NCBI GenBank assembly: GCA_963696385.1 | Contig: CAVOKF010000005.1 | Location: 1,152,001-1,216,000, forward strand | Direction of reading: 5' to 3' | DNA: 64,000 nucleotides | Source: an uncultured delta proteobacterium | Lineage (GTDB): Bacteria; Myxococcota_A; Polyangia; Polyangiales; Polyangiaceae | In this document: in pieces, positions 33,277 through 64,000 of the stretch | Position numbering within the stretch: the stretch's first letter is position 1 | Layout: the number at the start of each line of letters is the position of its first letter | Notes under the pieces: model-generated | The model's input: the letters and a program-made list of their open reading frames with translations, nothing else | Told to the model about the DNA's origin: nothing | The model's database searches: none | Program-made: the position numbers and the translations under genes

Positions 33277-34269
33277 TCAGGGCAACGTGCTGCAATTGGA
33301 CAGCGAGCCGGCGGTCCCGGCGTTGTCGACGCACTCGACGAGGCTCGGCGGGATGCCGCTCGAGGTGCCCCCTACAAGGACGACGGTCAACGCGCTGCCC
33401 GAAGCGGCCGATACGGGGGTCGTGGTCGACACCGAGGTTGGTTCACCTGTGCCGCCGTCCGGTTCGGTCACGCCGCTTTCGGGTTGAATCGCGCCGTGCA
33501 GTAATGCGGTGATCGTGGCGTTCGCGAGCGCCGAAAGCGTGAGGTAACCGTCGCTGTCGACGCTGGGTGCAGAGGCGTCCGCCGCAAGCGCGGCTTGCGC
33601 TTCGGCCTTGGTACTCGCGGTTCCGAAGGCGATACCGGAAAATTCGGTCTTCGTCCCAATCTTCAGGTCGGCCTCCGGCCAGGACGGGACGGCGTCGACG
33701 ACCCGCAGCGTCACGGCACTCGGGGTCAGCGCGTCGTCCAGGAAGCCGACGACCTGCAGGGCGGAATCGCCTCCGCTGGGATGCGCTTCTCCGACGAGAG
33801 CGATCGTCGCGAAGGTGTTGGCGGCGAGCGAGGGAAGGGGCGTGGCGTACGGGAGGATGCTGACCGCGCAGGTGTCGGCCCCGGCCACCACGACCCACGC
33901 GTCGTATTGGACAGCCGCCGGAACGCTCACGTACGCGCTCACGAAGGGAAACGCGACGTCGCCGGGGCCTGCGTCGGTCGACGCAGCGAGATCGGCCGTA
34001 ATCGGACCCGTGAACGCCAGGGTCCCGTGGGGCGCGACGCACAAATCGATCGCCGGCGAGTCCGGCGACCAGTTGGCCACGCGCAAAAACGCACGCGATG
34101 ACGATTGCGCCGCACCGGCGTCCGTACTCGCCCCGTCGCTCGTGCCATGTCCTCCATCGCCCGCGGCGGCATCGGCGACGGGAACCGGCACGACGTCGTC
34201 GTCACCCGCGCCGCAAGCGATCGCACACGCGCAGACCGTTGCCGTGATCACAATCCAGACGGTTCTCAT
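33277..34269 (-). CDS. DUF4397-like lipoprotein
   Basis: Lipobox AIAC; FLRVANWSPDSPAIDLC...VSAY and a second LRVVDAVP repeat. Confidence 0.75.
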   Translation of the reverse strand: MRTVWIVITATVCACAIACGAGDDDVVPVPVADAAAGDGGHGTSDGASTDAGAAQSSSRAFLRVANWSPDSPAIDLCVAPHGTLAFTGPITADLAASTDAGPGDVAFPFVSAYVSVPAAVQYDAWVVVAGADTCAVSILPYATPLPSLAANTFATIALVGEAHPSGGDSALQVVGFLDDALTPSAVTLRVVDAVPSWPEADLKIGTKTEFSGIAFGTASTKAEAQAALAADASAPSVDSDGYLTLSALANATITALLHGAIQPESGVTEPDGGTGEPTSVSTTTPVSAASGSALTVVLVGGTSSGIPPSLVECVDNAGTAGSLSNCSTLP

Positions 34270-35885
34270 GGCTGTCCCGGGCTCGCCGCTGGCTCCTCTT
34301 CGTGGCGTGTGCGCGACCAGACGGCAGCGATCTCGTTCGACGCGTCGTCCAAGGCGCGGTCGTTGAGAGCCTCGCGTGCGAGGCGACCTCCCGACGGCGG
34401 TGGAACGAGCGCTCCCACGTTATGCGAAACCGCGAGCCGGGGCTCCACGTGGCCGGCAGGCACGACGAGGGGAAATTGCCCCTGGGCTCCCTCGACCACG
34501 CCCCAGGTTCCGGTAGGCCGGCGACCTACCGAATCGACATGAGGGTGGAGGAATACGAGCGAGCGGCTTCCGATGGAAAAAATCGCCTGGCCTTCGATGA
34601 TCTGTCCGATGTCGCCGACACTCCCGCCAAGCGTTCGAATCCACACTTCGCGGTCGAGGCGTCCGGCCACGGACCGTTCGACGCGGGCGCGCGTGTAGGT
34701 GACGATGCGGCGATCCTCCCAGAGCGCGTGCTGTTCGATCGGCGTGACGACCGCGACGGCGCTCGCCTTGTAGATCAGCTCGCCGAAGAGCGCCATCACC
34801 GATACGCTCGCGCGAGCGTCGCGGAAGCTCGCCGCGCAGACTCCCAGCACGGCCAAGGATAGGCCGAGAAACCGGGCGACCGCGCGTGCGCGACGGGAGG
34901 TCCGACGGGTGCGCCGGGCCCACGCTCCGAGGCCCACGAGGCCGCCCGCGGCCAGGACCATGCCGTTGCCGTTCGTCCGCCCGGGCGTGACGCCGCAGCC
35001 GAACAGCGTATCGGTCGCGACTAGCGCGTTGCCGCCGTCTCCCTCCGACGAATCGGCTGCGACGACGCTCGCGTCGAGAGATCCGCATTGGTCTTCAAAA
35101 CCCAAAGGGGGCTGTGGCTGGCACAGGGTAGAAGCGAACGCTCCTTGCGCCGTGCTCCGGCTGCCGTCCGGACTGTATATGGAGCAAATCCCGGTGACGT
35201 CGTCGGGCTCCAAGGTGGTCGAGCCTGGATGATAGAAGGCGTACATCACCGCGGTCGTGTCGGCGGTATGGGCAAGACCGAGGAAATGCCCCGCCTCATG
35301 CGTCAGGATGCTTGCCAGGTCGTAGGCTCCTTGGGGGGGCGTGCCGTCCGCGACGATCACGTAGCCCGCCGTGTTGATCTCGATGTCGGCGCCCAAAATC
35401 TCGCCCGTCGTCAGATTGACGGTGAGCGTCGTGTAGCCGATGGCGTTGGCGCTGTCGTCGTAAGGCCAGCCGTTGTCACGGAAGATAATGACGTTGTTGT
35501 GTTCTTGCGAGGGGACCGCGTCGCAGTCCACAGGCGGAAACGCGCTCGCCAGGATGCTCGGGTTGCCCCCCGCGGCGCACGTCGCGGTGCTCCAGGTCGT
35601 AAAAGCCTGTTGAGCGACCCGCTCCGCGTCGCTGAGCGAAACCTGCTTGCTCGCGTTTCGTTGGAGGCTGTAGCTCACACATTGATTTCTCCAAAAAAGC
35701 GGAGGCAAGGTCGTCCCCGCTTCCGGAGCGGTCGTGAAGCAACCGAGCACGGTCGGGTCGTAGCCGGCCGGGGCGCTCTCGGTCACCTCTCGACAATAGG
35801 CTCGCGCTTGCCTCGCCCCCAGCATCACGACCAGCACGCTCAGCACGGTGCGCGCGGAGCGGCGAGGCGGTCGCAAGGAAGTCAT
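34266..35885 (-). CDS. Matrixin (M10 metzincin) protease, internal MYXO-CTERM-like segment and a second exported domain
   Basis: HEAGHFLGLAH and Met-turn AVMY; GCGV...hydrophobic...RR; then a second signal-like segment ending DARA. Confidence 0.85.
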   Translation of the reverse strand: MTSLRPPRRSARTVLSVLVVMLGARQARAYCREVTESAPAGYDPTVLGCFTTAPEAGTTLPPLFWRNQCVSYSLQRNASKQVSLSDAERVAQQAFTTWSTATCAAGGNPSILASAFPPVDCDAVPSQEHNNVIIFRDNGWPYDDSANAIGYTTLTVNLTTGEILGADIEINTAGYVIVADGTPPQGAYDLASILTHEAGHFLGLAHTADTTAVMYAFYHPGSTTLEPDDVTGICSIYSPDGSRSTAQGAFASTLCQPQPPLGFEDQCGSLDASVVAADSSEGDGGNALVATDTLFGCGVTPGRTNGNGMVLAAGGLVGLGAWARRTRRTSRRARAVARFLGLSLAVLGVCAASFRDARASVSVMALFGELIYKASAVAVVTPIEQHALWEDRRIVTYTRARVERSVAGRLDREVWIRTLGGSVGDIGQIIEGQAIFSIGSRSLVFLHPHVDSVGRRPTGTWGVVEGAQGQFPLVVPAGHVEPRLAVSHNVGALVPPPSGGRLAREALNDRALDDASNEIAAVWSRTRHEEEPAASPGQP

Positions 35886-35901
35886 TGGAGTTGCGCAGCG
35901 A

Positions 35902-37014
35902 TCAAAAGTTCGCACGGACGAGCGCGCCTGCTCCGCCCGAAAGCGGGGCCGGGACGAGCATCCACCCCGTGCGCGGTTTGGAGGTCGGGTCCGTCAGGAA
36001 AACGACGAGCGAAGAGACGAGTGCCGCTCCTCCGACGGCAAATGAAAGGGTCGCGGCGGTCACGGCCTCGTTCTCCAACGAGGGATCGCAAGGGCAGTTG
36101 TGGCTCGCCAGTACACTTCGCCTCACCACGAAAAATGAGCCGAAGCCTGCGCCGACGGCGCCCAGGCCCAAGAGACCCAGCTCGACGCCCAGCCGCGCCG
36201 GGCTCTGTCTCGCGGGAGTCGCCCTCTCGGTCACGGACAGCGCCGCGGGGGGTCCCGAAGCAGCCGACTCACCGGCAATCGAACGGTCTGAAATCGAGAA
36301 GGTCGCGGAAGCAGCCGTTGCGGGCGCCGCCGGGGTTGCCATCGGTGCCGGTGGAGTTGCCGCAGGTGCCGCGAGGGTTGCGACCGGCGCCGGTGCCGTC
36401 GCTGCCGGCGCGGGCTCGTCTGCTTCTACGATGGCAGCGAGATGGGTGGCGTCCAGGTGGGCGTGAAGGGTCCGCGCGGCCCGTCCGGGCCGATCGAGGG
36501 TGACCACATGATCGCCGGGGTCTACCGCGAGCGAGACGTTCCAGCGTTCCGGGGGAAGGGGGGCGCCATCGACCAGGACTCTCCGGTCGTCCTGTGGCGC
36601 TGCCGCGGTGATCACGACCGTGAGTCGGTTGACTTTCGCTTCGAGGGCTTGGGCGCGCACGTGCGCGAGGCCGGCGCGCTTTTCGTCGCCGCGAGCGCGT
36701 GCCAGCGCTTCGGCTTGCCGAAACTGGGCCCATGCGCTCGCCGGCTTTCCGGTGTGCTCGTAGCAGTTGGCCAAATGGAGCGTGACGCCGACACCCGCCG
36801 CCAACCTCTGGCTCTCCGCGAACATCGGACAGGCATCGGCAAGCTGTCCGGCATTCTGCAATTGTTTGGCGGCGTTGAAGAGCCCCTCGGCGCGCGAATC
36901 GTCCGCGGGCTCGGCCGCAAGAGTGGGGGACGACCCCAGCCCCAAGAGTCCCCAGGCGGTCGTTGCGAACGTGCGCCGGGCAGCACGAGCGATCGCGGGG
37001 CAGAAAACGTTCAT
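35902..37014 (-). CDS. Exported TPR/PEGA-type protein, paralog of 32351-33262
   Basis: ACPMFAES..LAAGVG..LHLANCYE; PEGA-like VLVDG...VDPGDHVV; ends RANF. Confidence 0.75.
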   Translation of the reverse strand: MNVFCPAIARAARRTFATTAWGLLGLGSSPTLAAEPADDSRAEGLFNAAKQLQNAGQLADACPMFAESQRLAAGVGVTLHLANCYEHTGKPASAWAQFRQAEALARARGDEKRAGLAHVRAQALEAKVNRLTVVITAAAPQDDRRVLVDGAPLPPERWNVSLAVDPGDHVVTLDRPGRAARTLHAHLDATHLAAIVEADEPAPAATAPAPVATLAAPAATPPAPMATPAAPATAASATFSISDRSIAGESAASGPPAALSVTERATPARQSPARLGVELGLLGLGAVGAGFGSFFVVRRSVLASHNCPCDPSLENEAVTAATLSFAVGGAALVSSLVVFLTDPTSKPRTGWMLVPAPLSGGAGALVRANF

Positions 37015-37049: not shown

Positions 37050-40000
37050 TTACTGCAGGCAGGGGTTGCATCCGTTGCCTTGCGCGCAGTTGAGGATCTG
37101 GTTGGCGATGCCCGACGGGTTTGCGCCGGTCGTGTCGGTGTAGTTGTTGATGATGTCGTTCGCGTCGGTCTGCGGGAACGTGAAGCCGGCGACTTCCGGG
37201 GCCAAGCAGGCCCCGTTGACGTTTGCCCCGCGAGACGAGCAGGCCGTTGGGCCCACTTGGTTGAACCCGCTGACTCCACAATAGCAGAACGTATCGCCCT
37301 GCGCGCTGGCGGCGCACTGCTGACCGGTGGCGCCGGTCATGCAATCGAGGGCTCCGAGGCACGCCGAGACCGTGCTGACCGTCGCCCCGCTGCCATTGGT
37401 GAACGTGGTGGAGCTGCCGACGAAGCCCGCCGTTCCAATGTCGTCGCATTCGCGGTTTCGAACACCATGGATCGGATCGTCGAGGCAGGACCCTGCGACA
37501 AGGCAGCTCAGGCAGTTGCCGGTCAGGGTGGGGGAACCGGCGTAATCAGGCCCTGCGGTCAACACGCTGCCCGAGGCGATGTCGAGCTGCACGAACGCTG
37601 CTTCGGTCCGCGAGCAGACTCCGCTGGAGCGGTTGGGGCAGGTGATGCAATTCGTCTCACCCGCTGTGGTGCAAGCCGTCAGAGGCGACGCGTTGCCCGG
37701 ACCATCCCCGCCGGCTTCAACGTGGGCCGAGTCGAGTCCGGCGTCGACTGTTGTCGCGTCGAGGCCCGCGTCGACTGCGGTCGCGTCGACGACGGTCGCG
37801 TCAGCGACGCTCGAGTCCGCGATGCCCGCGTCGAGGCCGCCCTCGCTGGCCGATCCGTCGATCGCGCCCCCATCGTCGGTGGACCCGCCGCCCGCTGCGG
37901 GCTCGTACGTTCCAACGCACGCGCGGACGTTGACGCTCGCCGCCGGAAAGGGCTGGCACACGGGGCCGGAGTAAACGAACGTGGCCGTCGCGTTGGTCGT
38001 CGCGGGGCACGCCGGATCGGAGGTCGAGCTGACCAGCTCGGGCAGCGCCTGGATGTTGGGCAAGACCTGTATCGGCGGCGCGGGTTGAATCCCGAACGCG
38101 TCTAGGGGCTGGATGGCGATGTTCAGGGTCGCGGACGCAGTTCCCGCGTTGGCCATCGGGATCGAAAAGCCGCTCGTGCTGTCGGCTGCGTAGAATGGCC
38201 CTTGTGAGTCGGAATCGGGCCCACCGCCCTGCGGCAGCGATAGAACGGCACCATTGAGTGTCCATGAAATCGGGACTGTGAAATCGGTTGCCGGCAAGCT
38301 GGCGATGTCGATGATCAATTCGTCCGCGTAGGGCGCCGATCCGGGAAGCACACCCTGGCCGGGGCTGACGGGCTTCGGATTGACGACGATGGTCGCCACG
38401 CCATTGGGCGCCAACATCCCAGAGCCCGAGTCTGCGAACGTGTACCAGGTGCCCGCCGAGAGGCGGATCGTGTAGGGCAGCTGTTGGTTGGTCGAATTCG
38501 TGAGGGTCACGGACTGCCCGCCGGGAGGAGATCCGCCGCAGTCGGTCGTGGGGAATACGAGGCTCCCCGAAATGGTTGCGACCGGGCTCGCATTGGAGGA
38601 ACCGGAGAAATCGATGGTGGGCGTCATCCATTGACTCGGCAGGGCCGCGCAGAAAGCGTCGGTCGCGCTCACTTGCAGTTGTCCCTGGTCGGTCCAGTTT
38701 CCGCTGGCGGAGGGCGCAGAGAATTGACCGACGAGCGCGGTCACGCTGGCCGGCGGCACGGTCGTGGGGTTGCTTTGCAAGCCGAAGATGCCTTGTGTCG
38801 TAAGCCCCTGCAGCGTCACGGTCGCCGGCGCGTTGCCCGTATTGCGGACCGATGTGGAGAAGGTGCCGATCGAACCGGCCCCAACCGTTCCGAAATTCCA
38901 TGTGGTCGACAACGGCGTGTCGGCAATGACCGCGCCGCGCGCCTGCATGGCGAGCGGGACGACGTGCGGGGTATCGCCGGCCGCGTCGGTCATGATGGTG
39001 AGCCGGTCGGTGAATGCCGACACGTTGTTCGGATCGGAAACTGCCGGAATGGCCGAGGGGACGACCGTGATGGTGGCCGAGCCGCCAATCGCGATCGCGG
39101 TCGTCGGCACCCCGGAGATCGCAAAGGGCGAGTTCGACCCCTCGCTAAGAGTGACGGAAGTCACGTTGAACGGCTGATTGCCTGCATTCGAGATCGTCAG
39201 CGTCTGAGTCGTTCCCGTTGAACCGCAGTTGACGAGACCGTAGGGATCCCCTGGTTGCCCGAATGCGAGCGTCGAGGCCGAAAGGGAAACGGATCCTGCG
39301 GTGCCCGTTCCGCTCAAGACAATGGCGCCGGGCAGTCCGGCGCATACCGGGTCCGACGTGACGACTGAAAGGGTCGCCGGATCGGCTCCCATGCTCGTTG
39401 GATCGAAGGTGACGGTCTCGGTCGCCGCACTGCCGGCTGCGAGGTTGCTTGCCGGCTGAGAGCCTGAGTAGGCCGCTGCGCCCGCGCCCACGCATGCGAA
39501 CTGGACATTGGCATCCGACGACCCGGGGTTGGCACCGTTGGTCACCGTGAAGGTTTGGCTGAGGCTCGTGTCGAGTGGGACCTGACCGAAGCGCAGAGTC
39601 GAGACGGAGACGGACAATTGATCGCCCAGAGGGACCTCGCTCAAGTTCACGACGTGAGGCGGATCCAGCGGGACATCCGTCGTTACCACCAGTTGCGCCG
39701 CAAGCGCAGCCGGGTTCGGATTCGGCGCGGGGGAAGCGACGGCGGTTGCGGTCACCATCACGGTGGAGCTCGCCCCAGGAGGCAAGAGTCCGGGTGGCGT
39801 ACTGGTCGTTGCGCTGTAGATGGCGGCTCCGGGCCCCGTGATTCCGCCCAGCGTCCAAGTGAGGTCGGCCGTTCCATTGTTGGATACGACGAATGTCTGC
39901 GATCCGGGGGCCGGGCCTCCACAGGTGGCCGGAAAGGTCAAGAGCGTCGGGGTCACGATCGGGCCGCCGCCGATGGCACTTCCGGAAAGCGGCAGGGGCG

Positions 40001-41627
40001 CAGGCAGCACCTGGCAGATCACTGTGGTGGAAGCGACCGTCAATGCCAACGAGCCCGTGGTGGCGCCGCCGTGGACAGGACGGAACGAGATCGACTCGTC
40101 CTGCTCACTGGGTGCGGCGCCGCTGGCCTGCGCGGCAATGGTGAAGTTCGGTGTCGAAACGCTGAATGCGGACGCGACGCCCGAATCGTTCGTTATGCCC
40201 CCACCGTCGGGTAGAACGCCGCTGCCACTTTCGGTTGCCACCACTGTGATGTTCGCGGAGGCGTTTCCGGCATTCGTAATTCCGAAACTCTGTGGAGGGG
40301 TCGACTGAAGAAGGATGCCCGCAGAGCCGAAGTTGCCAAAGCTGCTCGCGTTCAGGGTATCGAATGCGAGCACTGCCCCTTCGGGCTCCTCCGTCAGCGT
40401 GAGTGAAGTGCCCGCGGTAGAAGGGTCTGCATCCGTGTGGATGACGACCGTTGCGCTCACGGGATTGAGGGATACGGATGGCGTCGTGGACGACGGGGCC
40501 GCAACGGCGGGCGCTGTAAACTGGATCGCGAGAGCGCCGCCGCTCGGCGCAATGACCGATCCCACGGCCGCGTTGGTCCCGAACCCCCCCATGCCGCTCG
40601 TGTCGACCGCCGTGATGCGGGCGGCGGTCGTCCCGCCGTTCGTCAGGGTCACGGTTTGCGGCACCGGTGCCGCACCGCCGCACGGGGTGAGCCCGAAGTC
40701 GAGGGTGCCGCTGCTCGGCCAGCCCGTAAGGACGCCGCTCGCGGTACTGCCCGTGAAGGTAACTTGACTAAGGCTCGAACCGCAGACGACACCGGTCGCG
40801 GTGATGAGCGCGCTCGCGATGACCGGGGCGCTTCCGGTAGGCGTGAACACCGCGGTTGGACTCGCGGTTTCGCCCGGGTTCAGTGAAAATTCCACCCCCG
40901 CATCGGCTTGTTCCGCGAACGCGATGCTCGCGACCGGAGCGATGCTGAAGGTCCCGGGGGCGTTGCCGGTGTTTGCCAACTGCAGCGCGAGCGGCGGCGC
41001 GGCGACGCCGATCTCGCTGGAAGCAAAGGTGTATTCAGACGTCCCCGTGAGGGTTGCACCGGTGGGTGTCACCGAGAGCGCGACCGCCAGGCTCGTGTCG
41101 TTCGGATCGTTCGTGAAGAGCGACAGCGAGCCCGTGATCGGCGAGCCCGCAGTCGCCGAAGCCGGCACGTTTGCGGTAACGGTCAAAGCGCCCGACGCGC
41201 CAGCGGCGAGCGTCAAGGAACTTGGGCTGACGGCGAACGTTGGGCCCGTCTCCGTGACCGATACGGCAAGGACAGAGCCGCCTGTGTTCGTGACGGTCAG
41301 GGTCTCGGTGACTTGGGGCGTTCCGCAGCCGACTTCCCCGAAATCGATGGTGTTGGCACTCAGCGACACGAGCGGAGAGGCAGCGGATCCCGCGTCCCTG
41401 CTGCCGACCGTCGTGGCGTCAGGCGCAACGGCTGCGTCACTCGCATCGGGGGTGGATGAACCGTCTGCGGAGCGGGAGGCCTCTCCGCCTGCATCCGATA
41501 GGGCCGAGACCGGGCCGCCGTCCGGCACGGGCGAAGCGTTGTCGTCGCCCGAGCAGCCGGCAACGAAGCCGACACTGCCAAGTGCCAAAAGAAGGCTCGC
41601 GCGGGTGTAGCTCGATTGAAGGCTCAT
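37050..41627 (-). CDS. Large lipoprotein with about 10 choice-of-anchor-D/ASH Ig-like repeats and a C-terminal 18-Cys domain
   Basis: Lipobox VAGC; repeated (L/I)xFG...T(L/F)T(V/I)xNxG motifs; C-terminus ...NCAQGNGCNPCLQ. Confidence 0.8.
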   Translation of the reverse strand: MSLQSSYTRASLLLALGSVGFVAGCSGDDNASPVPDGGPVSALSDAGGEASRSADGSSTPDASDAAVAPDATTVGSRDAGSAASPLVSLSANTIDFGEVGCGTPQVTETLTVTNTGGSVLAVSVTETGPTFAVSPSSLTLAAGASGALTVTANVPASATAGSPITGSLSLFTNDPNDTSLAVALSVTPTGATLTGTSEYTFASSEIGVAAPPLALQLANTGNAPGTFSIAPVASIAFAEQADAGVEFSLNPGETASPTAVFTPTGSAPVIASALITATGVVCGSSLSQVTFTGSTASGVLTGWPSSGTLDFGLTPCGGAAPVPQTVTLTNGGTTAARITAVDTSGMGGFGTNAAVGSVIAPSGGALAIQFTAPAVAAPSSTTPSVSLNPVSATVVIHTDADPSTAGTSLTLTEEPEGAVLAFDTLNASSFGNFGSAGILLQSTPPQSFGITNAGNASANITVVATESGSGVLPDGGGITNDSGVASAFSVSTPNFTIAAQASGAAPSEQDESISFRPVHGGATTGSLALTVASTTVICQVLPAPLPLSGSAIGGGPIVTPTLLTFPATCGGPAPGSQTFVVSNNGTADLTWTLGGITGPGAAIYSATTSTPPGLLPPGASSTVMVTATAVASPAPNPNPAALAAQLVVTTDVPLDPPHVVNLSEVPLGDQLSVSVSTLRFGQVPLDTSLSQTFTVTNGANPGSSDANVQFACVGAGAAAYSGSQPASNLAAGSAATETVTFDPTSMGADPATLSVVTSDPVCAGLPGAIVLSGTGTAGSVSLSASTLAFGQPGDPYGLVNCGSTGTTQTLTISNAGNQPFNVTSVTLSEGSNSPFAISGVPTTAIAIGGSATITVVPSAIPAVSDPNNVSAFTDRLTIMTDAAGDTPHVVPLAMQARGAVIADTPLSTTWNFGTVGAGSIGTFSTSVRNTGNAPATVTLQGLTTQGIFGLQSNPTTVPPASVTALVGQFSAPSASGNWTDQGQLQVSATDAFCAALPSQWMTPTIDFSGSSNASPVATISGSLVFPTTDCGGSPPGGQSVTLTNSTNQQLPYTIRLSAGTWYTFADSGSGMLAPNGVATIVVNPKPVSPGQGVLPGSAPYADELIIDIASLPATDFTVPISWTLNGAVLSLPQGGGPDSDSQGPFYAADSTSGFSIPMANAGTASATLNIAIQPLDAFGIQPAPPIQVLPNIQALPELVSSTSDPACPATTNATATFVYSGPVCQPFPAASVNVRACVGTYEPAAGGGSTDDGGAIDGSASEGGLDAGIADSSVADATVVDATAVDAGLDATTVDAGLDSAHVEAGGDGPGNASPLTACTTAGETNCITCPNRSSGVCSRTEAAFVQLDIASGSVLTAGPDYAGSPTLTGNCLSCLVAGSCLDDPIHGVRNRECDDIGTAGFVGSSTTFTNGSGATVSTVSACLGALDCMTGATGQQCAASAQGDTFCYCGVSGFNQVGPTACSSRGANVNGACLAPEVAGFTFPQTDANDIINNYTDTTGANPSGIANQILNCAQGNGCNPCLQ

Positions 41628-49102: not shown

Positions 49103-49290
49103 TCGCGCCCACGACCCGTCGGCTCATGGTGGCCTTCGCGCTGACGGCGCTCTTTGCCAGCGCCTTGGCCGCGCTTTGGGTCCTGCCCGGCAGAGAGATC
49201 GAGCCGCGCCGAAAGGCGACCTTCGAACTGGACGAGCCCGCCGCGCTCGGCGCGGCGGCGAACGCATCGGGCTCGCTTTTACGGAAATAG
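49099..49290 (+). CDS. Small single-TM hypothetical protein (63 aa)
   Basis: ATGA overlap with the lepB stop; MIAPTTRR followed by a hydrophobic helix. Confidence 0.5.
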   Translation: MIAPTTRRLMVAFALTALFASALAALWVLPGREIEPRRKATFELDEPAALGAAANASGSLLRK

Positions 49291-55436: not shown

Positions 55437-58130
55437 TCACTGGCACTTGAAGCCCGTGCCGGTGTTTTCGTAAGAGAACGTGCCTGCGCAGCGGCAGATG
55501 GTCGAGCAATTGTTGCCCGATCCGCCGTTGCCACCGTTGACGGCGGTTCCGGTTCCGCTCGTGACGCCGGGGGTGCCGTTGTCGCATTCCTCATAGGGCT
55601 CTTGAATGCCGTTGCCGCAGATCGACCCTGTGCTCGGCAGGCCGACGGCGACTCCGAGAGTGGCGTTGTTTCCCGCGTTGCCGGGGCACGCGTCGACGTT
55701 GGACGCCGTCCCGCCCGCGCCGGCCGCGGCTCCGCAGACCAGCTCCTCGTTGAAGTCCTCGCAGAACGGCGCGTTGTACGGGGCTGTAGCGGCGGAAGGC
55801 AGTGTGAAGTAGCCGACGCTCGTGAGAATCGAGTTGATCACGGGGACGCCGCTGACGACCGAGGCCTCGTATTGGGCCAAGGTGAGCTCGCCGGTGGCCG
55901 TGTCCGTCTGACCCGAAGTCCCGGCGGTAATGGCCGAGAAGCCCACAAGAGAGTTGAAGTAGAGCTTGCGCGCGATCTGGTACTCCACGGTTTGCGAGCC
56001 GAGATCGGTCACGGTCGTTTCGGTCGGATACGTCTGGTCGATCCGGAGCGAGTCCGTGCTTTGGGGGCCGGCTAAGCCGCTGCCGATGCATTGCGCCGGA
56101 CACACGAACGGCGCGAGGGCTGAGCTCGTGGAGTAGGGCGGTTGGGTTCCATTGGTGCCGCTGCCGGCGCAGACGCCTTGGGCCGCGAGGGTCTGGCAGA
56201 CGATTCCGTTCTGGCGTGTGCTCCACGACTTGCCGCCGTCGGCTGCATACCCGAAGCTGCAGGGGTCGGCTTGGACCAAGCACCCCACCTGATCGTCGGC
56301 GGAGACCATCTGGCAGCCGACGTTCGGCGGCGAAGTCAGCGCCAGCGTGGCATTGCTCGCCACGTTGCCGTCGTTCCACACCGTCGCGATGGTGTGGATG
56401 GTTCCCATTCCGCCGATGAAGTCGACGGTCGGCGGCGAACTTGTGCCATTTTGGATCGTCTGTTCGATGTAGGTGATCGATCCGTCCGTGGTCGTTCCGT
56501 CCCGCATGAACAGGTTGTAGACGCGCCCATCGGGCGAGCCGAGCGTCCGCTTGTGCGAGACGACCGAGACCGTCTTGGATGCGATGCACTGCGAGGTCAG
56601 CGGAGAGGTCGCGATCGGGACTTCGCAACTCGTTCCAATCAGTCCGTCGCCGTCGGGACACTCTCCCGCGTGCGTCGCCGATTGGAAGGGACCGCAATTG
56701 AGGACGTTCACCGGCTTGCCGAGCCGCTGCGCACCCGTGCAGGCCACTGTCGGGTATTGAACCTCCGGCGTGCCAGCGGGGTTGGTCTGGCTCGAGATGA
56801 AGTCCGAAGTGGGGACAGCGAGGACGACTCCGAGTTTTCCGTCGAGGTTGCAAACTTGCTCGCCCGATGCAAGGACGTTGGTCGTCTGGCCTCCGGAGAT
56901 CGTTCCGATGCAGGTGCGCCGGATCGGGTCGTTGTCCTGGAAGCCGGTGGGCAGCACATCGAAGTTGCTGGGATTGCCGGTGATGGCCGGAGTGTTGCCC
57001 CACGTGCCCGGCGGCGGCATGCGGTGATTTCCACCGCCGCCCGTCGTGTTGCATGTTTCGGTACCACTGACGGCGCTGCTCGCGAACGACTTGAACGTGC
57101 ACAGCGAATTCGGGTCGATGACACCGCCGGGGCCGACGAATTGGTCGTCGGGGCCGAAAGTCAGATTGCCCAGGCTATTGAGCTGTCCGCCGCAGAACCC
57201 ACCGTTGTTGTTGTTGACGTTCGTGTCCCAGTTGAGGGCGTTGCAGTAAGGACTCGCGCCGAATCCGTTGTTGGATGAAGCCGATGGCGACGGCATGAGC
57301 ACCTGCAAGCCGATGAGCGACGAGAAGACGTCGGATGTGCCGGACGAGTCGTCACGCCGGAATGCGTGCATCAGCGGTACGTGCGTTCCGTCGCCCGCAG
57401 CAACGTGAACCGAGTCGCCGCAGACGTCGGCGTTGTTGCCGGATGGCGCGGCGGGAGAGGCCGTCCCGTTGCTGCACGTGCTGCTATTTTGAAATAACAG
57501 ACTCCAATTGTTGACCAGAGCCGCGCGCACCGAGCTGCTGCAGTCCGGAAGCGTGCCCGCTGGGGCCGACAGGTCGAGGCCTCCGTAGAGAAGCGCGAGC
57601 GTCCACTTCCAGTTCTGCGTGTTGCCCGCGGTGTTGGCGAACGGCACGCCCGCCGCAATCGAGCCGCTGTAGGCAAGACCGTTCGCTTCCTGCGCGTTCT
57701 GGTCGGCGACGGACGAATCACTGCAGACAGCCTGCCCGCCGTTGGTAATGGCCGGGATCGTCGACGACGCCAGAATGTCGACCGCGTCCATGCCGATGAC
57801 GATGCCGCTCGCGTTGGTCGCGGCCGAGCCGTTCGTCCCCCCGATCTTGTTGCACACCCCATTCGTCAGCATTTTCGTCATGGGCGCGGTCTGCTGCGTG
57901 GAGGCCTTCACCGAACTGGCCGCCATGGCCGACTGACCGGCGCCAGAGCCGCCGGCGAGGTAGTTCGCTTCCTGGCTGGAGCCCAACCCCGGTGCAGCCA
58001 GAATGGCATCCCGAGTGACGTAAAGAAGTGAATCCGACCCGTAGTACGCCGTAGGCAAGGTCAGTGCCCCTGCGGCCGTAATGCCCGCGCCGACCACCAA
58101 GCCGGTGGCGATCGCTATAGATTTTCTCAT
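55437..58130 (-). CDS. Secreted Cys-rich PstS-fold protein, paralog 3 (897 aa)
   Basis: GGAGG RBS; GSDSL, GGSGAG, RRDDSSGT and YQIARKLY. Confidence 0.8.
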   Translation of the reverse strand: MRKSIAIATGLVVGAGITAAGALTLPTAYYGSDSLLYVTRDAILAAPGLGSSQEANYLAGGSGAGQSAMAASSVKASTQQTAPMTKMLTNGVCNKIGGTNGSAATNASGIVIGMDAVDILASSTIPAITNGGQAVCSDSSVADQNAQEANGLAYSGSIAAGVPFANTAGNTQNWKWTLALLYGGLDLSAPAGTLPDCSSSVRAALVNNWSLLFQNSSTCSNGTASPAAPSGNNADVCGDSVHVAAGDGTHVPLMHAFRRDDSSGTSDVFSSLIGLQVLMPSPSASSNNGFGASPYCNALNWDTNVNNNNGGFCGGQLNSLGNLTFGPDDQFVGPGGVIDPNSLCTFKSFASSAVSGTETCNTTGGGGNHRMPPPGTWGNTPAITGNPSNFDVLPTGFQDNDPIRRTCIGTISGGQTTNVLASGEQVCNLDGKLGVVLAVPTSDFISSQTNPAGTPEVQYPTVACTGAQRLGKPVNVLNCGPFQSATHAGECPDGDGLIGTSCEVPIATSPLTSQCIASKTVSVVSHKRTLGSPDGRVYNLFMRDGTTTDGSITYIEQTIQNGTSSPPTVDFIGGMGTIHTIATVWNDGNVASNATLALTSPPNVGCQMVSADDQVGCLVQADPCSFGYAADGGKSWSTRQNGIVCQTLAAQGVCAGSGTNGTQPPYSTSSALAPFVCPAQCIGSGLAGPQSTDSLRIDQTYPTETTVTDLGSQTVEYQIARKLYFNSLVGFSAITAGTSGQTDTATGELTLAQYEASVVSGVPVINSILTSVGYFTLPSAATAPYNAPFCEDFNEELVCGAAAGAGGTASNVDACPGNAGNNATLGVAVGLPSTGSICGNGIQEPYEECDNGTPGVTSGTGTAVNGGNGGSGNNCSTICRCAGTFSYENTGTGFKCQ

Positions 58131-58237: not shown

Positions 58238-58329
58238 ATCGGCCGAAAGAGCAGGTATCTTCAACATTGGCACGTACAATCAGACACTTAGGATCCGCGC
58301 GAAGACGATGGCCTCAGCCCCGCGATCAA

Positions 58330-58363
58330 CCGATTTTCGGAATCAAGCCACTGATTATCGGAG
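58330..58363. promoter_or_regulatory. Shared upstream element, second copy
   Basis: CCGATTTTCGGAATCA-AGCCACT-GATTATCGGAG. Confidence 0.65.
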
Positions 58364-58598: not shown

Positions 58599-60125
58599 TT
58601 ACGCGATTTTCGGCGTCAAGCGGCGCCGCAGCAAGGCCCTGCCTGCGATACCGGCCCCCCCAAGGAACAAGGCAATCGCGACGAAAACGAGAACCATCCG
58701 CAGTCGATGCCTCTTCTCGGTGGCCAGCGTGGCTTGCTTCATGAGGTCGACCGAGAGGCCGACGGATCTCGCGCGATCCAAAAGCTTGTTCGCAACCTCG
58801 AATTGGCCCTCCTGCATCGCGAGCGCCCATTGATAGGTGAGCGTCTTCCGGTCATCGGGAGCCCGCGCCGAGAGCGCAGCGGTGCATTCTCGGAGCTCCG
58901 CAACGTTCGACGTGCGAGTGCCGACCTCGCATTCGAGCTCCGCGCTCGCCTCGCGGCCTTCAGGGTCTTCCTGCATGTGGCGGATCACTTGCTTGAGCGC
59001 CGCGGTTTCTTTTTGACTGAGCGGTCCGGGCTTGGCGAGTGTCAACTGGACGAAGCGCGTATAGTCTCGGACTTTGGCTCCGTCGCGGAGCAACGCTTCG
59101 CCGCAACTATTCACGGCATGGTCGTGATCTCCCAGAGCCTCGTATTCCTCGCACAACTTCGCGTACGAAACCGCACGGTCGGGCACGGTCTGGGCGAGCG
59201 CCTTGTAATATCGGACGGCGGCCGCGTGGTCTCCGGCTTTGGTGGCCCGCTCGGCTTTCAGCGCGAGGTCTTGAAGCCAATAGCCAAATTGCAAAGGATC
59301 CGAATTGCGGGTCTTCTCGTCGGGAATGCTATTTTCGGGATGAGCATCGTCGATAGGCCAACGACTGAGCCAGCCGCCGCGCGGAAGCTCGTCGGCTCGC
59401 GCCGTGCCCGAGATCGCGCAAAAAATGAGCACCCCTAGAGCCGCCGCCGCGCGTCTGCCGGACCCGTGCGTGAGGCGGCGGAGGACCGCATGGGCCACCG
59501 TGACGGCGACGGCCGTCGCGATGGACAACCACCCTGCCCAGAAGCGCCAGGGAGGGCAGCGCGAGTCGATCAGCGAAACGATGCGGCGCGTCTGAGGGTC
59601 GGACGGAGCGAGCCGCTCCAATTTTTCGGCACATGCTTGCAACATGAGTCCATCTCCAATGCTTTCGGCGATATCGCAGGCCATCGCCGTCGGCGTCGGC
59701 GCGCCCGGAGAATTGTGGTTTTCCGTAGAGGTGATGGAAAGGGCCAGGTTAATCTGTGCGACCGTCGGTGCGGTCGGGCCATCGACAAATGCGCGGACGA
59801 GGGCCCGGATGTTGGGATTGGTGTGTCGCCCGGCGAGCGCTTGAGAGCAGGCGTCGATCGCGTCGTTGCGGCGGCCCAAGACGACCAGCGCTTCGCACTC
59901 GCGACGCCGCGGCAGCGCAGCGTGCGGCAGCTCGGCCTGCGTCTGGCGAAAGAGCGCGTAGGCGGCCTCCATGTCACCTGTGAAACCCAGCGCTTCACCT
60001 TTCTCGAGCAGATCCGCGGCATGAGGGTTCCGGCGCTTCATGGAGTCCATCTCGGCTTGGTCCCAAGAATCTCGCGCGATCGCCGCGCTTGCCGTGAACG
60101 GAACGAAGAGCGCGAGGAGCCCCAT
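58599..60125 (-). CDS. Membrane-anchored protein with two TPR-like modules separated by a TM and an internal signal-like segment
   Basis: Helical TPR-like repeats with paired Cys; TM, basic loop, hydrophobic stretch, TARA|DELP; C-terminal TM followed by RRR. Confidence 0.75.
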   Translation of the reverse strand: MGLLALFVPFTASAAIARDSWDQAEMDSMKRRNPHAADLLEKGEALGFTGDMEAAYALFRQTQAELPHAALPRRRECEALVVLGRRNDAIDACSQALAGRHTNPNIRALVRAFVDGPTAPTVAQINLALSITSTENHNSPGAPTPTAMACDIAESIGDGLMLQACAEKLERLAPSDPQTRRIVSLIDSRCPPWRFWAGWLSIATAVAVTVAHAVLRRLTHGSGRRAAAALGVLIFCAISGTARADELPRGGWLSRWPIDDAHPENSIPDEKTRNSDPLQFGYWLQDLALKAERATKAGDHAAAVRYYKALAQTVPDRAVSYAKLCEEYEALGDHDHAVNSCGEALLRDGAKVRDYTRFVQLTLAKPGPLSQKETAALKQVIRHMQEDPEGREASAELECEVGTRTSNVAELRECTAALSARAPDDRKTLTYQWALAMQEGQFEVANKLLDRARSVGLSVDLMKQATLATEKRHRLRMVLVFVAIALFLGGAGIAGRALLRRRLTPKIA

Positions 60126-60144: not shown

Positions 60145-61350
60145 TCACTGCAAGCAGGTCGTGCACCCATTGCCCTGCGCGCAATTGAGGATTTGGTTCG
60201 CGATTCCGGACGGATTCGATCCGGTCGTATCGGTGTAGTTGTTGATGATGTCGTTCGCGTCCGACTGCGGGAAGGTGAAACCAGCGACCTCGGCCATCAA
60301 GCACGGCCCGTCGACGCTCGCGCCGTTGGACGAGCAGGTGGTTGGACCGAGGCCGGCGAATCCGCCCGTGCCGCAATAGCAGAATGTCTCGCCCTGAGCA
60401 TTGGCGGCGCACTGCTGCCCGGTCGGACCCAGCACGCACAGTAGCGCGCCAATGCAGGCCGAAACGCTGCCGACGCTGGCTCCGCTGCCGTTCGTGAATG
60501 TGGCCGACGTCATGCTAAATGTCGGGGTTCCAATATCGTCGCACTCGCGATTCTTGATGCCGTGCTGGGGATTGTCGACGCATGAGCTAGCGACGAGGCA
60601 GCTGAAGCAACTGCCGGTCGAACTCGGCGAACCAGCGTAGTCCGGTCCGCTGCCGGTGACCGCGCCCGCGCCGATGTCGAGCGCAACGAACGCGGCCTCG
60701 GTCTCGGTGCAGACACCGCTGCTGCGGTTCGGGCAGCTCACGCAGTTCGTTTGGCCGGCCGACGTGCAGGGCACGAGAGATCCCGCCTCGCTCGTCCCGC
60801 TCGGGCCTGTTTCGCTCGCGCTCGCGTCGGTCGCCCCGGTTTCGGGGGCGCCCTCGCTGGCCGCAGAGTCGGGCGAAGGCGTCGCCCCAACGTCGATCGT
60901 GCCGTCGGAAAGCGTCGAATCCATTTCCCCATCGGAGATCGCGGAGTCGCTGGTGGCATCTTCACCGCCGGCCTCCCGTAGCCCCGCATCGCGCGCGCCG
61001 GCATCGGGGATCGCCATCTCTTCGACCGTCGCGTCTTCGCGAGATGCGTTCGGAGAGCCGTCCGGCTCGGCGCTCATTGCGGGATTCGTGGTCGCCGCTG
61101 CGGCGCCCTCGTTCTGCGCGCCGGTTGCGTCTTGCCCGGACGCCGCGGTCGCCGCGTCCAACGCGCTCACCGCGCCGGCGCCGGACGACCCGTCATCGGA
61201 CTCGCCAGTATCGGAATTGCCCGGCAGGGCCGAGCTGTCGCCGACGTCACTGCAGCCGCCGGTCGCCGTCGCCATCACGAGCGCCGCCATGAATCCGCCA
61301 AGGCTCGTGTGCCACGAACGCGGTGCCACGGAGGATTGCGTGTGACTCAC
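60145..61350 (-). CDS. Lipoprotein with an acidic linker and a C-terminal 18-Cys domain
   Basis: Lipobox-like TGGC; GTGA overlap with the upstream gene; ends NCAQGNGCTTCLQ. Confidence 0.8.
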   Translation of the reverse strand: MSHTQSSVAPRSWHTSLGGFMAALVMATATGGCSDVGDSSALPGNSDTGESDDGSSGAGAVSALDAATAASGQDATGAQNEGAAAATTNPAMSAEPDGSPNASREDATVEEMAIPDAGARDAGLREAGGEDATSDSAISDGEMDSTLSDGTIDVGATPSPDSAASEGAPETGATDASASETGPSGTSEAGSLVPCTSAGQTNCVSCPNRSSGVCTETEAAFVALDIGAGAVTGSGPDYAGSPSSTGSCFSCLVASSCVDNPQHGIKNRECDDIGTPTFSMTSATFTNGSGASVGSVSACIGALLCVLGPTGQQCAANAQGETFCYCGTGGFAGLGPTTCSSNGASVDGPCLMAEVAGFTFPQSDANDIINNYTDTTGSNPSGIANQILNCAQGNGCTTCLQ

Positions 61351-62255
61351 AGCCCACCGTCCAAGCAATCATTTTGCTGAGCGACGTTGAAAACCTGATT
61401 CAAGCGTGATCCGCAAAAGCCCATCACGGTCGGGTCGTTGTCTTCATAATTGTTGATCGCGTCGAGGATGGTGGCGGAGGTCTGCTCGAGACTCGCCAGC
61501 TCGTCGGTCGCGCACGGGCCGGGCGGATGGGGATCCGACGCGCACACGGTTGGATCCGTTTCGGACCCGCAAAGGCAACTGATGACGTTGGTGCCGCACC
61601 CGCTCGCCATGATGCATTCGTAAAGTTCGAGACACAGCGAGTACCGGGGTTCGGCAGCGCCCGGCCCCTGGACCGCCGTTCCGGCGTCTTCGCACCAATT
61701 GCAGGGCGGAAACTGGATATAATCGAGAGAGGCCTTCGGCGCGGTCGCGGTCTCGCACTCGTCGGCAGCCGTACTGCCGAGCCATCCGTATGTTGCGCAC
61801 GCGCTGCCGTCCATGGCTGGAATCGCGGATCCGTCAGCGGCGAAGTCGGACGGGATCTGCACACTCTCACGGCCCAACGCAACCAGATCTCCGCTGCGTT
61901 CCGGAATGAAGGGCGGGCAAGTCGGCCACGGGTAACCGGCCTCGGCGGCATCTGCGGTCGCGGACGGCGGGTTCACCTCGGGAAGAGTCTGATCGGCGTA
62001 GAAAATGGCGACGTCGAACGTCAAACTCGCATCTTCGTCGTCGCCGGTCGTTGCATCCGAGGCGTCCACGGCGAGATCCTCATTCGCGTCCTGCTGCTGT
62101 TGGACCGGCAGGTCTTCATGCCCGTTCGTGCCCCCGCAAGCGAAGGCGACGAAGCCAACGATTGCGCGAAGGGCCATAACGGCCATCGATACGCGAAAAG
62201 CGGCGCCGATGCGCGCCGCTCGAGAGAGTGACCGGTGGACGATGGTGCTGTCCAT
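61347..62255 (-). CDS. Cys-rich lipoprotein with a diverged copy of the shared C-terminal domain
   Basis: Lipobox-like AFAC; CLELYECI...CLCG...GPC..E...INNYED...NQ..N.AQQNDC. Confidence 0.7.
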   Translation of the reverse strand: MDSTIVHRSLSRAARIGAAFRVSMAVMALRAIVGFVAFACGGTNGHEDLPVQQQQDANEDLAVDASDATTGDDEDASLTFDVAIFYADQTLPEVNPPSATADAAEAGYPWPTCPPFIPERSGDLVALGRESVQIPSDFAADGSAIPAMDGSACATYGWLGSTAADECETATAPKASLDYIQFPPCNWCEDAGTAVQGPGAAEPRYSLCLELYECIMASGCGTNVISCLCGSETDPTVCASDPHPPGPCATDELASLEQTSATILDAINNYEDNDPTVMGFCGSRLNQVFNVAQQNDCLDGGL

Positions 62256-62368
62256 GGTGAGGCAGGGGGCCTTATGCCAGCGTGGTGAGATATGAAATGC
62301 GACGTTTTGGCAACACCTGGTCGCTTCAGCGACGGCGGCAAACCTCGCACCCCCCTTGCCTAGGCGGA

Positions 62369-64000
62369 TCACGGCGCCTCCGGATGGGAGCCGCACCAGC
62401 GCCGCCACATCCATCGGAACGCCGACTCGAGATGGCGAGCGAAGCGAGGGCCGTCCATCAAAGCGGAGCGCTCCATGCGTTGTCGCAGCTCCGCCCGGAG
62501 GGACCCGAGTCGAGCCAGATCGCTCGCCAGCGCAACCGCGGCGTCGACGTATTGTTCCGCCGTCGTAGCGACAAGATCATCCAGTCCGAGGTTACGGGCG
62601 TAGCAGAGTCCCGCGCGTCCGAGCGCCGTAGGGCCCACCCGCGTGATGACCGGCACGCCCATCCAGAACGCGTCCAGGCTCGTCGTGTGCCCGTTGACCG
62701 GAAACGTGTCGAGGCAAATATCGATCCGCTTGTACACGGAGAGATACTCGGCTCGCGGCTGATAACCGACGAACTCGATCCGGTCGGGATCGACGCCGGC
62801 TCGGGAGAAGGCGTCGCGCACACGCGTGCGGGATTCGCCCGGATAGGCCAAGACAACCATGTGCGCGCCTTCGACCGCCGCGAGCACTCGGGCCCAAAGC
62901 GCAAACACTTCGGCGCTCGTCTTGCCGAAATTGTTCAAGCAGCCGAACGTGATCCATCGGTTGCGGAGCGCGGGCGGCGCGTTCACCTCAGGCACTCGCG
63001 TGAGCGGGTCGTAACACCAGAACGAGTCGGGCAAGCGAACCGAGTGCTCCGTGTACCAGCCGCTGACGTCGATTTCGGGAGGGTCCAGGAAAACGTCGGT
63101 AATCCGGTAGTCCATCGCTTCAAGGCCCGTCGTTCCTGGATACGCGAGCCACGCCAGTTGCACGGGCGCAGGCTTCGAAGCAAAGAGCGCCAAGCGATTC
63201 TCGCCCATGTGCATCGTCAGGTCGACCAAGAGGTCGATGCGGTCGCCGCGAATGGCCTCGTTCGCCTCCGCGTCGGTCCGCGATCGGATGTCACGAAACT
63301 CGTCCGATAGGCCGCGAATCCGGCGGGTCCGTTCGTCGGGACTGGCGACAAATGAATAGCAGAATACTTCGACGGCGCGGCGGTCGTGATGCTCGAGCAG
63401 GGGCACGAAGAACAGAGCCTGGCAATGCTCCCGGAAGTCCGGCGAGACGTACCCCACCCGAAGGCGTCGATCGGGGTCGCGGTCGTTCGTATGTGGGCGA
63501 ACGCGGGCGGTCTTGGGCCCGACCTGACGCTCGCTCCATCGAATCGCCTCTTGCGCGACGGATCGCGCGTCCTGGGTGGGGTCCCACGACAGCGCGAACA
63601 CGAGATTGCTGTGGGCGATTCGGTCGTCGGGCCGGCAGTCGAGAGCCCGCCGGAACGAGGCGATAGCCTCTTCGACGCGGCCCTGCTCCTTGAGCACGAC
63701 ACCGAGCTCGTTGTGGGCGCCCGCGAAGCTCGGATCGATTTGGAGTGCGCGTTCGCAGGTGTCCCGAGCCTCGTCCAGTCGGTGGACTCGAGAGAGCGCT
63801 CCCGCCAAGCTCATGTGGGCGGCAAGCAGCCCCGGCTTGAGCGCCAGCGCTGTCTTGAAGGCGGCGATGGCGTCGTCGAGACGGCCCTCCCCGTAGAGTG
63901 TGAGGCCCAACGTGTAATGGGCTTCCGCCAGACCCGGGTTGAGCGCAACCGCCCGATGCAAGCTCGCCATTGCCTGAGCCACGTGACCCAATCGCCGGTA
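62369..64000 (-). CDS. TPR-containing SPINDLY/O-GlcNAc transferase family (GT41) protein, 5' end beyond the window
   Basis: TPRs, then RLRVGYVSPDFREH, APVQLAWLAYPGTTG, FGCLNNFGK and DICLDTFP..GHTT..DAFWMGVP. Confidence 0.92.
   Translation of the reverse strand, partial: YRRLGHVAQAMASLHRAVALNPGLAEAHYTLGLTLYGEGRLDDAIAAFKTALALKPGLLAAHMSLAGALSRVHRLDEARDTCERALQIDPSFAGAHNELGVVLKEQGRVEEAIASFRRALDCRPDDRIAHSNLVFALSWDPTQDARSVAQEAIRWSERQVGPKTARVRPHTNDRDPDRRLRVGYVSPDFREHCQALFFVPLLEHHDRRAVEVFCYSFVASPDERTRRIRGLSDEFRDIRSRTDAEANEAIRGDRIDLLVDLTMHMGENRLALFASKPAPVQLAWLAYPGTTGLEAMDYRITDVFLDPPEIDVSGWYTEHSVRLPDSFWCYDPLTRVPEVNAPPALRNRWITFGCLNNFGKTSAEVFALWARVLAAVEGAHMVVLAYPGESRTRVRDAFSRAGVDPDRIEFVGYQPRAEYLSVYKRIDICLDTFPVNGHTTSLDAFWMGVPVITRVGPTALGRAGLCYARNLGLDDLVATTAEQYVDAAVALASDLARLGSLRAELRQRMERSALMDGPRFARHLESAFRWMWRRWCGSHPEAP

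Follow-up and report, generated by a model that had tools for sequence, protein, structure and literature searches.

An apparently undescribed, conserved and self-regulated export system of uncultured Polyangia

Do the exported, mostly Cys-rich genes that cluster in the genome of an uncultured myxobacterium form a single system and, if so, what does that system make? The question arises from a 64,000-nucleotide stretch of DNA (the window; positions 1152001-1216000 of contig C5 in a 6.94-Mb genome of 66% GC), for which a sequence-only reading had proposed one linked, co-regulated surface structure. Gene calls came from a hexamer model that had been trained on this genome, and families were assigned with Pfam and NCBIfam; close homologs carry the name 'Polyangiaceae bacterium'. 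The genes were found where they had been placed, and in window positions the core comprises the secreted exoprotein EXO-A (49599..52292, plus strand, 897 aa, with a cleavable signal peptide), accompanied here by its paralogs EXO-B (52474..55116, minus strand, 880 aa) and EXO-C (55437..58130, minus strand, 897 aa), the 550-aa lipoprotein LipoD (41963..43615, minus strand), the 1277-aa lipoprotein cytochrome c CYT (43929..47762, plus strand), in most loci the dedicated signal peptidase I LEP (47807..49102, plus strand), and TPR2 (58599..60125, minus strand), a protein of two TPR-like halves. We find the locus to be real and conserved, a self-regulated system for export in uncultured Polyangia that is apparently undescribed; literature searches, chiefly of open-access papers, returned no description of this gene combination, in keeping with the novelty that had been claimed for it. 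That it makes a bulk surface coat, with EXO and LipoD as its bulk components, which displays passenger proteins and binds phosphate, is a reading to which we give about an even chance.

A search for EXO over 61 genomes gave 23 matches at E 0.001, of which 22 were kept; a match of 34 residues in G038 (E 9e-4), a genome without a full CYT, was discarded as spurious. Full-length CYT was present in 22/22 genomes with a real EXO gene, close to EXO on one contig in 20 of them and split from it at contig ends in two, and one further assembly in 950 contigs (G010, unpublished and not relied on) had CYT and no detected EXO. At the genus level, EXO occurred in 18/30 genomes. Scanning GTDB with the CYT alignment gave 194 relatives and returned 79 loci, all of them from metagenome assemblies, the only form in which these Polyangia are known here, with titles that were mostly Polyangiaceae, Polyangia, Myxococcales or unclassified. 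The content of the 39 loci of at least 19 kb was scored at 30 bits with hidden Markov models built from genus-level sequences; EXO and LEP were each found in 35, the Cys domain of the lipoproteins in 31, TPR2 and the LD_N module of LipoD in 29 each, an outer-membrane monoheme protein in 17, a sigma54 activator in 15 and a GT41 glycosyltransferase in 10, followed by a matrixin in 7, an Ig-repeat protein and TPRa in 5 each, the two exosortase halves in 5 and 4, and DUF4397 in 3. Because the flanks were 10 kb, these counts are lower bounds, although low-complexity matches may inflate them by a few. The neighborhood check thus found the co-occurrence that one linked system predicts, and this conserved, separately regulated gene set is carried by many uncultured soil myxobacteria.

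The EXO family itself is large (2007 representatives at E 0.001, 425 at 1e-30), and a draw across the phylum, in which two candidates were scored per genome and which is therefore a weak measure of range, found the locus in 2/401 genomes, so that the system is patchy. Such patchiness, together with highly variable flanking genes, is what would be expected of a loose island of exported myxobacterial genes with no joint function. We now give that explanation almost no credence and consider it largely refuted, since core synteny holds across families and orders, a regulator and sites are shared, and the entire core has in some genomes been duplicated as a unit.

The identity of the exoproteins was examined by sequence and by model. 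The three paralogs, recognized as such in the sequence-only reading, are 76-82% identical by tblastn, with 32-33 Cys each, and tblastn found no further copy in the genome. By sequence, EXO matched nothing in Pfam, NCBIfam or PDB; the PF12849 profile did not match any of the three, and the two PF12849 matches of the genome lie elsewhere. The AlphaFold2 (AF2) model of EXO (pLDDT 86, pTM 0.92) bore out the proposed PstS fold, aligning by VIA with 4gd5 at Z 14.8 and a root-mean-square deviation (rmsd) of 2.9 over 241/243 residues, spread over EXO residues 1-765, and with 4omb at Z 14.2, so that the whole two-lobe fold is contained in EXO. The best 24 VIA matches were phosphate-binding proteins; Foldseek reached only E 0.06 at best, with nothing under E 0.001, and an Atlas search returned unnamed Myxococcota clusters and one PBP-like lead at 0.88. 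Outside the PstS core lie about 550 inserted residues, forming a large insert rich in Cys, and a C-terminal repeat that we take to be the myxobacterial Cys repeat. The motifs S-D-T, GGGSG, S-R and R-x-D-x-S-G-T, presumably the phosphate ligands, are kept in most homologs, both the 115 close and the 65 wider ones (S9 in 59, D10 in 61, S39 in 53, R228 in 62, S232 in 54, G233 in 59 and T234 in 57 of the 65), with some site residues altered in EXO-B (RRDDLAGT). The Cys count after the signal peptide is even in 112/115 close homologs.

In fold and site, EXO would on this model work like the PstS subunit of the ABC transporter, but it falls outside PstS on profile, partner and control. It differs from PstS in being about threefold larger, rich in Cys, free of lipidation and without a PF12849 match; its locus has no permease (pstC and the pst operon are on contig C8) and uses sigma54 instead of Pho-box control, and EXO also occurs in passenger fusions. 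Mature EXO proteins begin with LTVP..GSDT and similar sequences and not with DINGGG, the N-terminal signature of DING proteins according to PMC7922408, and DING structures matched less well (Z ~9). Eighteen database proteins picked by length or partial match (including P0363, P0308, P0259-P0272 and P0291) were scanned for fusions. In some, beta-helix, SBBP, FG-GAP or Kelch domains are followed by EXO profile positions ~100-600 alone, in which the phosphate motif has degenerated; in others the whole of EXO comes first, and RCC1, propeller or fn3/teneurin-TTR domains follow it. Retention of the central domain without an intact cleft indicates that it has a cleft-independent use, and it may be an assembly or attachment module. 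In a FastTree phylogeny of 65 sequences over 480 aa, rooted at the midpoint, the EXO paralogs of one genome mostly cluster together, which implies that duplication recurs in a lineage-specific manner. A second, different Cys-rich PstS-like family has six members in this genome, on C4, on C6 and in a copy adjoining the locus beyond the window (65814-66872); the latter has a Pho-box-like repeat upstream and ends early with an unrelated tail, probably through a frameshift.

LipoD, the partner of EXO, combines an N-terminal Ig/PKD-like module, LD_N, with a C-terminal Cys domain. The last 211 aa of LipoD, of a choice-of-anchor-D Ig-repeat lipoprotein (37050..41627, minus strand; NF012200 at 116 bits, cut-off 45) and of L18 (60145..61290, minus strand, in which an acidic linker precedes the domain) hold exactly 18 Cys each and are ~69% identical. 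The sequence-only reading had placed one such domain on four lipoproteins; the fourth, L18b (61347..62186, minus strand), has a divergent form that is 26% identical and has 13-14 Cys, so the 18-Cys description stands for three. A terminator at 41899-41926 separates lipoD from the choice-of-anchor-D gene, an accessory passenger behind it. A retrained model of the Cys domain gave 115 protein matches in 55/79 loci. Directly before cyt, Polyangia loci also encode a lipoprotein that carries Cys domains (L098:556-2415, L091:8016-9737, L104:7620-9776 and others), with a C-terminal domain that we assume to be carbohydrate-binding-like, and an unlabelled family related to it recurs in 19 loci.

The promoter motif that had been reported for two gene types lies upstream of lipoD (43796-43810) and exoC (58330-58344), with a related site upstream of exoA. 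We read it as a sigma54 promoter with a tandem activator site, an arrangement that the sequence-only reading had missed, together with an activator gene outside the range it covered and a regulon that seems to reach phosphoesterase lipoproteins elsewhere in the genome. In the intergenic region common to lipoD and cyt, the lipoD -24/-12 element is at 43702-43717 and the tandem site at 43794-43827 (minus strand); for exoA the tandem site is at 49371-49405 and the sigma54 element at 49502-49517 (plus strand), for exoC the tandem site is at 58329-58362 and a candidate sigma54 element at 58156-58170 (minus strand), and exoB has no strong activator site. Across 51 exo upstream regions, a sigma54-like -24/-12 element was present in 36 and a tandem imperfect palindrome in 28, mostly 190-280 bases ahead of the start. 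The best-scoring terminators stand behind exoC and lipoD. The putative activator, with AAA+ and HTH domains and no receiver seen, is encoded just outside the window (64343-65452, minus strand) and is the likely regulator that binds the tandem site; its ortholog agrees with the locus in 19/21 same-genus genomes, even when unlinked (a count that leaves out G010, the two misses, G016 and G020, being fragmented assemblies), and in three genomes the site is found upstream of the activator gene itself.

How far this control extends was assessed with a matrix of the activator site, which found five distinct sites above 25 bits in the genome and none in 12 Mb of third-order Markov sequence. These precede lipoD/cyt (39.7 bits, the strongest in the genome; the exoA site scores 23.8), exoC, an LD_N-metallophosphoesterase gene followed by a CCP_MauG gene, and an LD_N-phosphoesterase gene, the fifth being at a phosphoesterase fragment that faces a MauG-like gene. 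The phosphoesterase genes with the site are at C8:790556-794159, C6:385084-387432 and C8:447099-449498; two adjoin CCP_MauG-type diheme genes, and the one at C8:447099 looks broken in pieces. That 45 activator sites were counted upstream of exo genes is circular, because the matrix was trained on those sites. An exact pattern gave 15 matches in 9/10 locus-bearing genomes, 14 of which fell at exo (4), lipoD/cyt (3), activator (3), LD_N phosphoesterase (3) and another LD_N lipoprotein gene (1), with no match in five genomes lacking the locus and none with the reversed control. Phosphoesterase orthologs with a long LD_N-type N terminus, sorted by eye and including this genome, scored at least 21 in 8/9 cases, compared with <1 for three close orthologs without it. 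The regulon would thus comprise the exoproteins, the LD_N lipoproteins, with two phosphoesterase families among them, and the activator.

Phosphoesterases in the regulon, with three of the five strongest activator sites preceding or flanking their genes, and the PstS fold and site of EXO would also suit a non-structural phosphorus-scavenging regulon, with EXO as a soluble and abundant sponge for phosphate, akin to DING proteins, and with lipoproteins and phosphoesterases that act alongside it but form no coat. A Pho-box-like repeat, found before 10/4857 genes, marks the pst operon and three flanking genes of the locus, once in the region common to the activator gene and the second PstS-like gene, and PhoB-like regulators are nearby. 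However, the core genes have no Pho boxes of their own, direct Pho-box control of them having been sought and not found, and a full pst operon lies elsewhere; scavenging of this kind also leaves unexplained the fusions that drop half the binding cleft, the dedicated peptidase, the polyprotein and the cytochrome, as well as a loss of sulfur that LipoD undergoes together with EXO. We consider it unlikely; it shares the phosphate theme with the coat reading, and the two are compatible.

The paired loss of sulfur was found in loci L095, L104 and L106, in which the whole core is duplicated with a sulfur-free EXO and LipoD (L095:1025-7193, L104:1374-7381 and L106:1796-7441). Beyond the start, the EXO of all three is free of Met and has two Cys in 924-927 aa, and LipoD is Met-free with the lipobox Cys as its sole Cys; the EXO family has a median of 7 Met and its other members 20-50 Cys, and the chance of a Met-free EXO is ~1e-5 per EXO. 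One Cys-rich EXO (L083) and several Cys-rich LipoD proteins are also Met-free, so that for LipoD the loss of Cys is the stronger sign. Sulfur is kept in the same loci by CYT (21 Cys, 21-23 Met), TPR2 and a long Cys lipoprotein. Met and nearly all Cys are gone from EXO and LipoD alone, and we therefore read these two as large sulfur sinks and probable bulk proteins. Next to each sulfur-free copy are genes for a family 2A encapsulin, the cysteine desulfurase that goes with it and a rhodanese. In L095 the encapsulin and the desulfurase score over NCBIfam cut-offs; in L104 and L106 the genes were assigned by sequence reading, as were the sulfate/sulfonate-uptake-like, YeeE/YedE-like or Rrf2-like genes that these two islands add. 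None of the three has the activator site. The assemblies that hold a sulfur-free copy also hold a Cys-rich one (L092, L102, L111, L115), and a fourth genome has fragments of a sulfur-free copy on short contigs; some genomes seem to keep this version for times of sulfur shortage. The Cys-free version keeps the whole machine, and disulfides are therefore dispensable, which leaves unsupported the disulfide-rich character that had been put at the heart of the system, whereas the idea of a surface structure gains independent support from the sulfur-free isoforms and the passenger fusions.

Sulfur-depleted phycobiliproteins are a familiar case of sulfur-sparing isoforms of abundant proteins, and the Cys/Met-stripped paralogs beside sulfur-starvation genes resemble them. 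They likewise resemble the general response outlined in PMC8557817; unlike known isoforms, a disulfide-rich exported pair here loses at least 20 Cys together and the whole assembly locus is duplicated. The codon adaptation index (CAI) placed lipoD at the 99th percentile, exoB at the 92nd, exoC at the 83rd, exoA at the 68th, cyt at the 42nd and lep at the 17th, which agrees with bulk status for LipoD, EXO-B and EXO-C, less so for EXO-A and not for CYT or LEP. Together with the sulfur-free isoforms and the repeated exo duplications, codon bias is an indirect sign of high abundance. RNA contigs from four runs in two studies covered lipoD by exact match in 4/4 runs and the exo genes, in pieces with 0-3 differences, also in 4/4, X3 and X4 having further pieces that diverge more; cyt, lep and TPR2 were thinly covered, although absence proves nothing here, and as the runs are contigs that hold 6-17% of words they cannot rank genes.

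The run of cytochrome, lepB and a small open reading frame (ORF) that had been pointed out is present, and CYT, the best conserved part, has CxxCH motifs at residues 98, 452, 541 and 932; four such motifs occur in 58/63 full-length homologs. It matches TIGR03806 (the SO2930 family of diheme cytochromes) at 100.1 bits against a cut-off of 313.3, indicating a related domain only, and its C-terminal part gives weak class I cytochrome c matches. In the AF2 model (pLDDT 90), residues 186-399 align with cytochrome P460/c'-beta at best Z 6.9 and rmsd 4.2 over 134 residues, below the meaningful level of the tool, Foldseek found no match under E 0.001, and P460 homology went unconfirmed by hhalign to 18 PF16694 hits (probability 9.8%). 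CYT is intact in the Cys-free locus, which led us to set aside a role for it as a dedicated disulfide oxidase. Tentatively, and as the weakest step of the coat reading, CYT could be a low-copy enzyme for oxidative maturation or upkeep of the coat, beyond mere disulfide oxidation.

Two other roles for CYT were weighed. As the part that anchors the locus, it might serve extracellular redox, moving electrons with an outer-membrane monoheme protein to or from minerals such as iron-bound phosphate while EXO traps the released phosphate and the lipoproteins act as scaffold. Recurrence of an outer-membrane CxxCH protein in 17/39 loci would fit, but that protein lacks the activator site in this genome and matches no NCBIfam family, cyt has a middling CAI and is single copy in most loci, four hemes in 1277 aa are sparse for a wire, and CYT matches no MtrC/OmcS-type family; we think this improbable. 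As the tightest partner of EXO, CYT might instead make the cofactor of a secreted EXO enzyme, in the way that MauG matures methylamine dehydrogenase. The same has been proposed for BthA and a phosphatase of Burkholderia, where a multiheme c protein is likewise fixed beside an exported partner (PMC6405878). A BthA-phosphatase-like pair is itself present in the regulon, where the CCP_MauG gene follows the metallophosphoesterase gene much as in the bthA-phosphatase arrangement (PMC6405878), and in EXO H224 and D390 are invariant and H568 nearly so. CYT, however, is unlike the BthA/MauG-type maturases, being a tetraheme protein that is not CCP_MauG, and a catalytic four-His site was dropped, since H351 and H476, though invariant in close homologs, are kept in only 12/65 and 11/65 sequences of the wider family. 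Sulfur sparing and passenger fusions suit a bulk scaffold better than a catalyst, and an EXO enzyme matured by CYT is very improbable in our judgement. The monoheme protein is encoded beyond the window, in the region 69954-72690, and with its N-terminal CxxCH it may be Cyc2-like; the region also holds a lipocalin-like gene and a small monoheme protein whose C terminus forms a sorting-like tail.

LEP is a Ser-Lys signal peptidase (PF10502 at 102 bits, a TIGR02227 match, both catalytic motifs present), and it has a paralog in a lepB at another place in the genome. Behind it stands the 63-aa single-transmembrane (TM) ORF (49099..49290, plus strand), a type that recurs behind the peptidase in 15 loci. 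Both ORFs for which internal signal peptides had been claimed were recovered, TPR2 and a matrixin (34266-35846). The halves of TPR2 are related (internal repeat E 5e-7) and each is membrane-anchored, with an internal signal peptide between them and a predicted cut after residue 244; a TM-basic-hydrophobic-AxA pattern is visible by eye in full-length family members. The internal signal peptide is likely a second substrate of LEP. TPR2 and the matrixin are polyprotein-like ORFs, with a membrane anchor, a basic loop and a second cleavable signal peptide, a layout kept across the TPR2 family and variable for the matrixin.

From these parts we infer how a coat would be assembled, where it would lie and what the cytochrome would do for it. 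In the coat reading, the sigma54 activator would switch on exo and lipoD as separate terminated units, giving a high-abundance outer coat, lattice or fibers, of two bulk proteins, the secreted PstS-derived EXO and the lipid-anchored LipoD. LEP would cut the EXO signal peptides, the internal signal peptide of TPR2 or both, and a cut TPR2 would yield two membrane-anchored TPR domains that might act as chaperones. LipoD-type lipoproteins would anchor the coat to the membrane; minor subunits such as the Ig adhesin and the phosphoesterases might join it through the LD_N or Cys domain, and beta-helix and propeller proteins through the central EXO domain to which they are fused. The retained cleft could bind phosphate or a phosphorylated surface group, and with the displayed phosphoesterases the coat might capture phosphorus at the surface. 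If this is true, a large uncultured group owes its main surface proteins to this locus, a solute-binding protein has come to serve as a subunit for structure and display, and nature offers a matched pair of one fold, with ~10-16 disulfides or at most one, for the study of elemental sparing and disulfide-free stabilization.

Several observations weigh against this reading or narrow it. LEP was not detected in 4/39 long loci, exoA reaches only the 68th CAI percentile, and the CAI reference was 14 motif-picked genes. Of the metallophosphoesterase orthologs, scanned on one strand, only 8/17 score at least 20 bits, and one LD_N gene in this genome lacks the activator site; as the site tracks the LD_N module, the phosphatases may have inherited promoter and module together. 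The Pho-box pattern was upstream of 0/62 exo, 0/49 LD_N and 1/73 cyt genes, which lends no support to phosphate control. The sulfur-free EXO has an altered phosphate site (GGQS, VGTA, RPDSAGV in two of three), and since the three form one clade (support 1.0), the sulfur-free copies are a single event. Sulfur sparing also affects sulfur-acquisition enzymes (PMC8557817), so that sulfur loss indicates abundance or expression in a sulfur regime and not structure.

The nearest functional relatives are the PstS/DING appendages of P. aeruginosa (PMC2242829, PMC3949141), which are reported to place a phosphate-binding-protein fold in a surface structure linked to phosphate scavenging, as proposed here for EXO. 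Those appendages are made of ordinary PstS/DING proteins, the Hxc type II system contributes to their surface expression and they are repressed by phosphate, whereas the EXO locus has a dedicated giant subunit, a partner lipoprotein, a peptidase, a polyprotein TPR and a cytochrome. EXO is also encoded with a dedicated signal peptidase (35/39 loci). In this it resembles Bacillus tapA-sipW-tasA, in which bulk secreted proteins are encoded with their own signal peptidase of the SipW type; unlike that system, the locus has no TasA or TapA match in Pfam or NCBIfam, its peptidase is of the Ser-Lys LepB type, its host is Gram-negative and it adds cytochrome and lipoprotein partners. It is possible, though we lean against it, that the locus represents a new class of Gram-negative coat, in which a PstS-derived lattice subunit is matured by a polyprotein chaperone together with a tetraheme cytochrome, in which adhesins and phosphatases ride as interchangeable passengers, and which demands so much sulfur that one lineage has evolved a full Cys/Met-free replacement under sulfur-starvation control.

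The remaining genes of the window are peripheral. The TPR-GT41 glycosyltransferase (62369..64000, minus strand, the gene running on to 64210 past the window) scores 187.6 bits against PF13844 (cut-off 25) and 28.5 bits against the NGT equivalog NF049992 (cut-off 1000). Its sequence has no export signal, a correction to the export that had been claimed for nearly every gene. Every gene and link that had been listed was recovered. The ratio of observed to expected sequons in EXO is 1.13 with GT41 (n=14) and 0.91 without it (n=47), among kin that are not independent. Haemophilus HMW1C is a GT41 dedicated to an adhesin, and the enzyme here likewise stands beside Asn/Ser/Thr-rich exoproteins; unlike HMW1C, it has a TPR-GT41 architecture, no two-partner secretion gene was seen, and it occurs in only 10/39 loci, for which reason we rejected it as the dedicated core part it had been taken for and regard it at most as an optional decorator. 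The left arm (33277..37014, minus strand), with a TPR protein (35902-37014), the matrixin and a DUF4397 lipoprotein (33277-34269), had also been counted with the system; at 5, 7 and 3 of 39 loci, these genes are accessory, as is GT41.

Around the core, an exosortase H-like gene pair beyond the window (67489-68314) has a weak TIGR04177 match and is found in 4-5 of 39 loci. A TonB-dependent receptor and a beta-helix-like lipoprotein occur as a pair upstream of or beside cyt in L124, L127, L128, L139 and L140, and porin genes in L091, L095, L104 and L106 are presumably of the phosphate-porin type. To the left of the locus, a 653-aa gene (30393-32354) that matches no Pfam or NCBIfam family has a Pho-box-like repeat upstream.

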